Shown: positions 1 through 3,000 of the stretch, one piece after another
Layout of the letters: the number at the start of each line of letters is the position of its first letter
Numbering within the stretch: the first letter of the stretch is position 1
Assembly (NCBI RefSeq): GCF_003334255.1
Contig: NZ_QOWU01000122.1
From: Escherichia coli
GTDB lineage: Bacteria; Pseudomonadota; Gammaproteobacteria; Enterobacterales; Enterobacteriaceae
Reading direction: 5' to 3' (one strand)
DNA length: 3,281 bases
Program-made: the position numbers

Positions 1-3000
1 CCGTACTGAGATAGCAATCAGCTGGATCAACGGTCTGAAAAAAATCCGTTTCCCCGAGAAGAGCGGCAAGATGCAGGATCACGGTGTTATTGCCGTTGAT
101 ACCGCAGTGAAGCTGTGATTTTTCCTTTCCCCATGCCGGGTTATCGCCCGGCTTTTTCAGGAGTCATTAATTATGGCAAAGACTATCCTTGCTCCGTCAC
201 TGAGTGAGCGGGTTTATTCAGGTACGCATGGTAATGAGTCGGTGGCAGAAGGTGTGTTTACAGTGAATGCTGCCGAACAGGAAACCGTTATTAATCTTCT
301 CTCACTGCCGACTGGCGTTCGCATTAATGGGATCCAACTGATTTCAAAAGGTGGTCTTGGTGGTACGGCGACCGTCAGCGTTAAATCTGGCAAGCATGAG
401 CTCATTGGTGACAGTGGTGCAGTAACTGCCAGCTTTGCTAAATATGTGCCAGTGGAGCCGTACACCACACAGAGTGATGGAGAGCTGGTTACGGTCACCA
501 TTAAGACAGCTGCTGCGACCGGTACCCTGAATGTTCTGCTGCGTTATACCGTAGTGGGATACTGATATAAACCTTCCGGCCCGCGTCATGCGGGCTTTTT
601 TATCCGGGGAATTATATGAGCGAGAAAATTGCCGTTGTCTATATCGGCCCCAAACCCGTGAAAAAGGATACCCTTACCGGCAGTCGTACACTGTTTCCGC
701 GTCTTGAGCCGGTGCATGTTGACAGCGCGCTTGCCTGGCAGTTGCTGGCCTTTCCGGATGTCTGGGTTCGTCATGAAGAGCTTGATGGTGTGCTCAAAAA
801 GCAACAACAGGATGAGCAGTTGCGGCAGGCACAGCAGGCGCAGGAAAGAGAACAGGTGGCTCTTGCAGAAGCGGAGAACAGTTTTGTGGTTAGCGTTGGT
901 GGTCAGGATGTGGATTTGAGCAAACTCACGTCCGCACGGCTGGCAACGTTGTGTGAGGCAGAAGAGCTGGATATTCACAAAGACCCGAAAGAAACGGCTG
1001 ATGCATTTCGTGTCCGTGTGCGTGAGGCATTTCGCCGTCGTGTTGCGGAGACTGAACAGCATGGCGGAACTGACTGATTTTTTGCCTTATGTCCGTCGTC
1101 ATATCAGCGGTCCGCTGAGCATTATGATGACGGATGCATTATCCATGTCGGCAGTGGCATTCTGCCGTCAGTCCCTGTTGTGCCGCCGTGAAGCCACGCT
1201 GTCACCGTCAGCCGGAGAGGACTGTGTGCTGCCATATGACGCGGAGAATGAAGAGTGCGTACATATTATTCGTATCCTCGCTGACGGGCGTGAGCTTTTT
1301 GCCGGTCATGATGTGGAAATCCGCCCGGGGCGGGTAATGCATTTTGCCTGTTCGCCCGGAGAGGTGAGTGTGCTTTATGCCGTTGCTCCGAAAGCAGGGA
1401 GCCGTCAGGTGCAGGATGAACTGCGGGCATGGTCTGAAGAAGTGGCTGCAGGGGCGCTTGAACGGTTGTTCATGCAGACCGGGGTTTCATGGTCAGACCC
1501 GTCGCGCGCACAGTATTTCTCTGTGCTGTTTTCTGAGGGTATCCGTCGGGCATATCGCGACACACTGGCGACAAGTCCGTACTCCTCATACCGCAATCCT
1601 GTCCGCAGACAAAGGTTTTACTGATGACGACGATTACTGAAATCATCGGACGAGTGAACACGCAACTGGTTGACCCGATGATGGTGCGCTGGCCTCTGGC
1701 TGAGCTGTGTGATTATTACAATGATGCTGTGCGGGCGGTGATTCTGGCAAGGCCGGATGCAGGCGCAAGTCTGGAGACGCTGAATTGTGTTCCTGGTGCA
1801 CGTCAGACTTTGCCTGATGGCGCAATACAGCTTCTTGACGTGATATGCCTCAGCGATGGCAGTGCTGTAAAACCGCAATCCCGTGAGGTGCTTGATGCAC
1901 AGTATCCCGACTGGCACATGCTGAGGGGGAAACCGGAATGCTTTATCAGCAGTGACCTTGCCCCGCGCGTGTTCTGGCTGTTTCCGGCACCGGAGGAGGC
2001 TGTGAGTGTTGATGCTGTGGTCAGCCGCATTCCGGAGGCGGTGTATGTTCTGACGCAGGATGATGACACGCCTGTACCGCTGGAAGAGGCTTATGTTAAC
2101 CCGCTGGTTGACTGGATGTTGTTTCGTGCATTCAGCAAGGATGCAGCCGGTGGTGCAGAGTCAGGACTGGCAGCACAACATTATCAGAGTTTTGTTGAGC
2201 AGCTCGGGATTAAACAGGGTGCAGACAGTGCATTGTCTGCCCGCAAGAAGGTGTTTAACGGAGGTGGAATGTGAGTGTTGTTGTTTCGGGGACGCTGAAA
2301 TCTCCTGATGGTGAGGCAATATCAGGCGCAAATATTACCCTGACGGCGCTGACAGTTTCACCGGATGCGCTCAGCGGCACCAGTGCGTCAGCAGTGACCC
2401 GTGAAGGTGGATATTACGGAATGACGCTGGAGCCGGGGGAGTATGCGGTTTCTGTGACGGTGAAAGGGAAGACTGCTGTCTACGGACGTGTGCGTATTGA
2501 GGGGACTGAAAGTACGGTGACGCTCAATATGCTGTTACGCCGCAGTCTTGTTGAGGTGAGCATACCCGGAGAACTGCTGACAGATTTCCGGCAGATACAG
2601 AACAATGTGGCGGATGACCTTGCCACGATTCGTCGTCTGAACGAAGACACGGCGGTGAAAAATAATCAGGCTTCACAGTCGAAGGAAAGCGCTGCTGCCA
2701 GTGCGAAGACTGCATCAGAAAGCGCGAAGGCTGCGACCAGCAAAGCGACGGAGTCTGCACAAAAAGCCAGTGAGGCTGCAGAGGCGGCGACCCGGGCAGG
2801 TGAGTCTGAAAAGGCAGCGGCAGCTGACGCTAAAGAGGCCAGACGACATGCTGAAACCGCCAGAGTGGCTCAGGAGGCCGCCGGAGACGTTCTTAAACGT
2901 GCTGAGGCTGCTACGGTTAGTGCTGAAGAAGCCAGACGTATGGCTGAGAATGCACGAGGACCTAAAGGCGATACAGGGCCGAAAGGTGATGCTGGTCCTC

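Follow-up and report, generated by a model that had tools for sequence, protein, structure and literature searches.

A Gln/Glu-rich stretch as the probable exposed middle of a spacer helix in an uncharacterised head-module protein of 933W/Sp5-type Escherichia coli prophages

Introduction

Here we describe a gene for a protein of 153 amino acids (aa), and the Gln/Glu-rich stretch that it encodes, in a 3281-bp window of Escherichia coli DNA (contig NZ_QOWU01000122.1), the window being the whole stretch that was analysed. The window is a head-to-tail section of the late operon of a short-tailed E. coli prophage of the 933W/Sp5 type (Sepvirinae, Traversvirus-like). It shows 99.9% identity to prophages of commensal E. 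coli genomes. In addition, 186 phage records match the window at 86-99% identity, and most of them belong to Shiga toxin (Stx)-converting phages.

Parts of the 153-aa protein resemble described proteins of other systems. In the ribosomal protein bL9, known as a "molecular strut", a long exposed helix connects two globular domains, and the 153-aa protein is predicted to share this arrangement. The connecting helix of L9 is understood as a spacer that is selected for helicity, polarity, and length rather than for sequence. YqbF of a Bacillus subtilis prophage (PDB 2HJQ) is a protein of about 100 aa, and its gene is located between the capsid gene and the adaptor gene yqbG (PMC11526630). In phage lambda, the gene order is E-FI-FII, with FI directly 3′ of the capsid gene E. 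According to PMC4856287, which cites Popovic et al. (2012), lambda gpFI is an assembly chaperone that is bound to the gpE lattice, and its non-specific DNA binding helps the DNA-terminase complex to join the prohead.

A described counterpart of the gene is found in the Stx2 phage Sp5/933W (VT2-Sakai), and the late genes of Sp5 were deleted singly by Mondal et al. (2016; PMC5155283). In Sp5, open reading frame (ORF) 62 encodes the capsid protein of 404 aa, and ORF63, ORF64, ORF65, ORF66, and ORF67 encode 129, 153, 187, 216, and 645 aa, respectively (PMC5155283). The deletions dORF61, dORF62, and dORF65 abolished head formation or packaging, and ORF65 was proposed as the scaffolding protein (PMC5155283). 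The dORF64 mutant showed markedly reduced plaque formation and lysogenisation; it was still infectious, and the authors assigned no function to ORF64 (PMC5155283). Since Sp5 agrees with the window in gene order and in gene sizes (404/129/153/187/216/645 aa), the 153-aa gene of the window is the orthologue of ORF64 (ECs1225; L003 7352-7813).

Results

The Gln/Glu-rich stretch is the 28-residue peptide LKKQQQDEQLRQAQQAQEREQVALAEAE, which corresponds to aa 60-87 and to nucleotides (nt) 793-876 (+) in the translation of the ORF at 616-1077. The original prediction had quoted this peptide at 781-870. The peptide itself exists, but nt 781-870 encode aa 56-85 (LDGVLKK...VALAE), so that the start was four codons off and the end two. 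The same prediction had described the stretch as low in complexity, encoded by CAG/CAA-rich DNA, and strongly helical in appearance, and these three descriptions hold. The peptide uses only 8 residue types, with Q 32%, E 18%, A 18%, and L 11%, and it is the 28-aa segment of lowest entropy in the protein (2.65 bits; median, 3.45). Q and E together account for 14/28 residues (50%), while the four adjoining proteins have 8.5-13% (binomial P about 6e-7 with p = 0.115). At the DNA level, 7 CAG and 2 CAA codons are found among the 28, and the stretch contains a 9-bp tandem repeat.

The structure of the protein was predicted as a monomer in two AlphaFold2 runs, one with a 28-sequence alignment and the other with a different alignment of 57 diverse homologues. 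The two runs gave an identical topology, in which a single continuous helix joins an N-terminal and a C-terminal domain (Table 1). This helix was H53-87 with the 28 sequences (predicted local distance difference test score, pLDDT, about 80) and H53-88 with the 57 sequences (pLDDT about 95; overall pLDDT of this model, 92). The only conserved hydrophobic positions of the helix are L56, V59, and L60 in its first turns, and they probably pack on the N-terminal domain. The remainder of the helix is polar and probably exposed to solvent. In the two domains, the conserved positions include the basic residues K13, K16, R24, and R29 on the N-terminal side and D100, K103, L109, T111, and L112 on the C-terminal side, together with the motifs DLxKxT..L.TL and FRxRVR of the C-terminal domain.

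As a test for a coiled coil, hydrophobic positions were profiled per column and per heptad in 45 diverse family members. None of the columns 61-88 is hydrophobic in more than 31% of the 45 members. The best heptad a/d hydrophobic occupancy of the quoted peptide is 0.25, compared with a mean of 0.30 for shuffles of the same peptide, and the family has a mean of 0.29 and a maximum of 0.50. For comparison, the a/d occupancy of GCN4 is 0.85, that of tropomyosin averages 0.57, and that of the monomeric connecting helix of Bacillus stearothermophilus L9 is 0.36. Furthermore, the hydrophobicity profile of the central helix had no dominant peak near 3.5 residues. With a/d occupancy at the shuffled level and no conserved hydrophobic column between 61 and 88, a canonical coiled coil is not supported, and judged by its sequence the segment appears to behave like an exposed single helix.

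The family of the 153-aa protein is sizeable. The original prediction had named a lack of conserved homologues among the findings that would speak against it; homologues were found in 72 close clusters (in Escherichia, Salmonella, Yersinia, and Aeromonas) and, after clustering at 50% identity, in 183 representatives (E <= 1e-3). Helix length was taken as the number of residues between conserved anchor positions in 130 proteins. The helix has exactly 36 aa in 107/130 of them, including 39/39 Salmonella/Yersinia/Aeromonas-type relatives (50-60% identity; P0030-P0072) and 50/67 distant representatives. The helix columns are nevertheless the least conserved of the protein (2.80 bits vs 1.98 and 2.22 for the two domains). 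The pooled helix composition is E 22%, A 21%, K 12%, and Q 9%, with 15% hydrophobic residues and 2% Gly+Pro, and E/A/K/Q/R/D make up 76% of helix residues family-wide. Thus, the length and the polar, helix-forming character are kept while the sequence varies, as in a strut of the L9 type. One metagenomic member, P0082 (279 aa), has a duplicated C-terminal domain, and another helix-like stretch, rich in Ala/Glu/Lys, comes before the additional copy; the unit of helix and C-terminal domain therefore seems to behave as a module.

The Gln-richness is a property of one lineage. The Q content of the helix is 25% in the E. coli/Stx-phage lineage and averages 8% elsewhere, where E/A/K/R are used instead; for example, Salmonella relatives have an ER/K-like helix such as QEEEKRLKEEELARQREEEAR. 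Rare helix lengths of 24, 26, 33, 39, and 41 aa, which arise via gain or loss of QAQ or QQQNE, occur in the Gln-rich lineage only. In E. coli, the rare variants have gained QAQ or QQQNE, lost QAQ, or undergone larger in-frame deletions, and these changes lie precisely at the tandem repeat 825-843. This repeat is likely a substrate for in-frame slippage. Length variants at repetitive DNA fit replication slippage in which most variants do not persist.

Matches of the predicted structure to known folds were modest and comprised the L9 N-terminal domain plus helix, YqbF, the C-terminal domain of lambda gpFI (PDB 2LSM), and SAP/LEM domains. Membership by sequence failed in all these families, with no Pfam match in the 57 members and no significant PDB profile match. 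For bL9, the best PDB profile match had E 0.27 in a different register, and there was no Pfam L9 match. The 153-aa protein also differs from bL9 in its SAP/HeH-like C-terminal fold and in belonging to phage morphogenesis and not to the ribosome. Its N-terminal domain is predicted to have a YqbF-type fold, whereas YqbF itself lacks the 36-residue helix. The C-terminal domain is predicted to have a helix, an extended loop, and a second helix, and it may resemble the SAP, HeH, and LEM motifs, but its loop exceeds theirs and differs in length between members. Ku70 SAP appeared in the PDB profile search at E 0.67, which is not significant. A Foldseek search against BFVD found uncharacterised phage proteins only, a few non-significant matches being named Rho_N, HeH/LEM, or DUF7210.

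The helix was also compared with single alpha-helix (SAH, ER/K) domains. The family is likewise rich in E/K/R/A/Q and has no hydrophobic seam, and opposite-charge i,i+3 or i,i+4 pairs average 10 per 36 aa (range 3-21). However, the helix in the window differs from SAH domains, since it is Gln-rich (25%), has only 4 charge pairs and a net charge of -5, and is short compared with the classical examples.

The position of the gene is shared with relatives and with lambda. Three distant members (28-40% identity) have the same gene order, namely a P22-type portal, a scaffold-sized gene, Phage_capsid_3, a gene of about 130 aa, the family gene, a gene of about 190 aa, an SU10-type adaptor, and tail genes. 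The 153-aa gene also lies where gpFI is encoded, after the major capsid gene and before head-completion genes. In the RefSeq annotation, the ORF at 616-1077 is the hypothetical protein WP_016232076.1, and both phage and RefSeq records call the 153-aa protein "hypothetical" and the adjoining proteins virion structural. No Pfam, NCBIfam, or PDB sequence match (PDB searched by phmmer) was found for the 153-aa protein, and its annotation consists of phrog_482 and a weak match to phrog_11782. A mass spectrometry study reports only capsid, fibre, and "virion structural" proteins (PMC12502783).

The closest solved virion is that of Ralstonia phage GP4, whose capsid (8h89, E 6e-40) and adaptor (8jov_2, E 1.5e-25) match neighbours of the 153-aa protein. 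A cryo-electron microscopy structure of a 933W/Sp5-type virion was not found in our literature search. The GP4 capsid and portal-tail entries contain no chain that matches the 153-aa protein. In GP4, the same slot (L010 10647-10985 (-)) is occupied by a gene for an unrelated hypothetical protein of 112 aa, which has no detectable similarity to the 153-aa family. The C-terminus of this protein (ALAEQYKAKFGKAPHGKWTVETIQQKL) also reads like an HeH-type helix-loop-helix motif. GP4 gp81, which the 187-aa protein of the window matches weakly, is present as 12 chains in the portal-tail complex 8JOV. This match hints at a portal-proximal structural role for the 187-aa protein, the orthologue of the proposed Sp5 scaffold, rather than a scaffold role.

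Coordinates of the features are given in Table 1. The ATG of the 187-aa gene sits 17 nt within the 3′ end of the 153-aa gene, and this overlap (1061-1077) suggests translational coupling of the 187-aa gene to the 153-aa gene. Overlaps continue downstream, with TGATG at 1622-1626 and GTGA at 2271-2274, and they suggest translational coupling along the module. The longer start used in some phage records, which would give 162 aa, would begin within the hairpin upstream of the 153-aa gene. The scan found 9 terminator-like sites compared with 3.5 expected. The two hairpins on the capsid side of the 153-aa gene are strong and might be attenuators or protective mRNA 3′ ends in a Q-antiterminated operon and might set the ratio of capsid to accessory proteins. 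An antisense ORF of 158 aa at 586-1062 (-) was rejected, because it is a mirror of the conserved sense gene without backing from homology or annotation; it is probably a by-product of stop-poor, CAG/CTG-rich sequence. The tail-fibre gene contains a 21-nt tandem repeat in 3 copies (2703-2767), which is Ala/Ser/Glu/Lys-rich, and a long collagen-like Gly-X-Y run at about 2960-3281.

Table 1. Genes, signals, and protein parts in the 3281-bp window
Feature	Position	Strand	Remarks
Major capsid gene, N4-gp56 family, 3′ end	to 118		
Terminator-like hairpin with T-run, after the capsid gene	135-157	+	consensus scan
Gene for 130-aa protein, annotated "virion structural protein"	173-565		phrog_486
Terminator-like G+C hairpin with T6, directly upstream of the 153-aa gene	578-602	+	consensus scan
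Shine-Dalgarno-like GGGGA	606-610	+	5 nt upstream of the ATG at 616
153-aa protein gene	616-1077	+	phrog_482, E 2e-86, full length; no assigned function
N-terminal beta/alpha domain, aa 1-52	616-771	+	most conserved part; motif YIGxKxxKxDTxxGxRxxFPR
Single 36-residue alpha-helix, aa 53-88	772-879	+	AlphaFold2 prediction
9-bp tandem repeat GCAGGCACA, 2.1 copies	825-843	+	encodes QAQ units; Tandem Repeats Finder
C-terminal domain, aa 89-149	880-1062	+	predicted beta-hairpin 91-100, then helix / extended loop / helix; SAP/HeH/LEM-like
Gene for 187-aa protein, Sp5 ORF65 orthologue	1061-1624	+	phrog_437; weak match to GP4 gp81 (8jov_G), E 0.013
Gene for 216-aa DUF6682/SU10-type adaptor	1624-2274		
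Tail-fibre gene with collagen repeats	from 2271		

Discussion

We propose that the 36-residue helix, of about 54 Å or ten turns, would be a spacer of fixed length that keeps two small conserved domains apart. As far as the models go, the Gln/Glu-rich stretch is quite probably the exposed middle of this single helix and not a coiled coil. Selection would act on helicity, polarity, and length and not on sequence, so that the E. coli lineage would have been free to drift to a Gln-rich helix encoded by CAG repeats. The N-terminal domain, with a fold that may be like those of the YqbF N-terminal, gpFI C-terminal, and L9 N-terminal domains, could dock on the capsid or prohead, and the SAP/HeH-like C-terminal domain could contact DNA or the packaging machinery. 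The protein might then act like the packaging chaperone gpFI, and the helix would be a strut that sets the distance and orientation of two binding sites, as in L9. This functional reading draws on the fold resemblance, the gene position, and the non-essential phenotype. Taken as a whole, a spacer helix in a head-module accessory protein has in our view a probability of about 0.6, and this estimate is weighted towards the structural core. The gpFI-like function, which is argued by analogy, is put forward only tentatively.

Several results weigh against this explanation, and the first concerns the Sp5 genetics. According to the published primers, the in-frame dORF64 deletion joins ATGAGTGAG to GGAACTGAGTGA, and the ATG of the overlapping essential ORF65 is lost. 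Translation of ORF65 would then depend on a GTG located behind the ribosome-binding site of ORF64. The mutant was presented without complementation (PMC5155283). Since the ORF65 ATG was removed and no complementation was made, the dORF64 phenotype is confounded. This leaky phenotype is compatible with an accessory factor, and thus with an accessory role of ORF64; however, it may equally reflect altered expression of ORF65, as a polar or translational effect of the deletion.

The second set concerns the family and the likeness to known proteins. The distant members P0147, P0179, and P0199 have Pro/Ala/Lys/Gly-rich and evidently non-helical linkers of 38-48 residues in place of the helix, so that a rigid helix is not universal in the family. 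Together with the E. coli singletons that have helices of 24-41 aa, they suggest that rigidity and exact length may not be indispensable. An Ala-rich face of the helix could still mediate weak helix-helix packing. In the query and the 57 members, Pfam YqbF had no match at E <= 0.1, and SAP, HeH, Rho_N, and LEM had none either. PF14000, the Pfam family of gpFI, was also absent from the query and the 57 members, while all listed gpFI relatives carry it. The domain order of gpFI is reversed compared with the 153-aa protein, and its linker is acidic with Pro and Gly, in contrast to the fixed-length helix. Finally, hhalign of the family against gpFI gave a probability of 0.2%, both with a single sequence and with a 15-sequence alignment, the gpFI profile being shallow because the homologue search gave only relatives of at least 86% identity.

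Three other explanations were weighed. The protein could be a minor component of the virion, for example a capsid cement, a head fibre, or an internal DNA-binding protein. Its helix would in that case span two fixed sites on the shell or the packaged DNA, as L9 does between two rRNA sites. The strict conservation of length fits sites at a fixed distance, the gene is flanked by virion protein genes, and the N-terminal domain resembles the RNA-binding N-terminal domain of L9 and carries the conserved residues K13, K16, R24, and R29 next to a SAP-like C-terminal domain. However, the protein is annotated as "hypothetical" though its neighbours are annotated as virion proteins, it has no matching chain in the GP4 entries that hold relatives of these neighbours, and the two upstream terminator-like hairpins suggest lower expression than that of the capsid genes, although these points speak only indirectly for its absence from virions. 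We regard this explanation as unlikely, and the records do not bear out the original description of a small structural protein.

Coiled-coil oligomerisation, in which the helices of two or three subunits would bundle into an oligomeric structural or scaffolding unit, is slightly less likely again. P22 and phi29 scaffolding proteins are helical and have a terminal helix-loop-helix. The predicted helix is long, uninterrupted, and of high confidence; Ala is frequent (0.3-0.4) at columns 66, 69, 71, 78, 80-82, and 85, which could form a small-residue interface; and a Vibrio homologue is listed as "coil containing protein" in one phage record. Nevertheless, the helix has no hydrophobic seam, its a/d occupancy of 0.25-0.29 is the shuffled expectation, and head formation does not require the Sp5 orthologue, the head-assembly phenotypes being those of ORF61 and ORF65. 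The suggestion that the stretch is an oligomerisation or scaffolding element is not supported, in view of the peptide's occupancy (0.25 vs 0.30 shuffled) and the infectivity of dORF64. A scaffold role for the 153-aa protein was rejected on the Sp5 genetics, as dORF64 still forms plaques and lysogens.

The least likely explanation is a flexible or disordered tether without a structural role of its own, whose composition comes merely from CAG/CAA slippage. In its favour, the helix sequence is poorly conserved, the DNA has a tandem repeat and E. coli variants differ by in-frame indels, clearly non-helical linkers of Pro/Gly/Ala/Lys occur in a few distant members, and lambda gpFI has an acidic linker that contains Pro and Gly. 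However, a tether would not be expected to keep exactly 36 residues in 107/130 proteins despite complete sequence turnover. Moreover, Gly+Pro make up just 2% of a strongly helix-forming composition, and the AlphaFold2 confidence of the helix equals that of the folded domains.

Returning to the spacer helix, it may be asked how far this explanation can be extended. In its boldest form, the helix would be a rigid molecular ruler that sets how far apart (about 54 Å), and at which rotational phase, a capsid-docking domain and a SAP-like domain for DNA or terminase binding are held, and phrog_482 would be an unrecognised and widespread class of podophage packaging chaperones, functionally analogous to gpFI but built differently. 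We consider this form doubtful.

As a probable polar spacer helix, the stretch is an ordinary element. The phage protein family in which it occurs is widespread though uncharacterised, and the strict conservation of helix length is the sole mildly notable property of the stretch. Polar helical spacers are common, and the feature matters little in itself. Nevertheless, it leads to a hypothesis on the structure and function of a gene that essentially every short-tailed Shiga-toxin phage carries and that records still call "hypothetical", and the fixed helix length makes this hypothesis cheap to test. In addition, the re-reading of the Sp5 deletion design implies that the only phenotype reported for ORF64 may be secondary to an effect on the essential gene that follows it. 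If the gpFI-like role is true, packaging chaperones of this kind would occur not only in lambdoid siphophages but also in podophages that have N4-like capsids. If the reading as a ruler and packaging chaperone is true, the function of Sp5/933W ORF64 would be identified.

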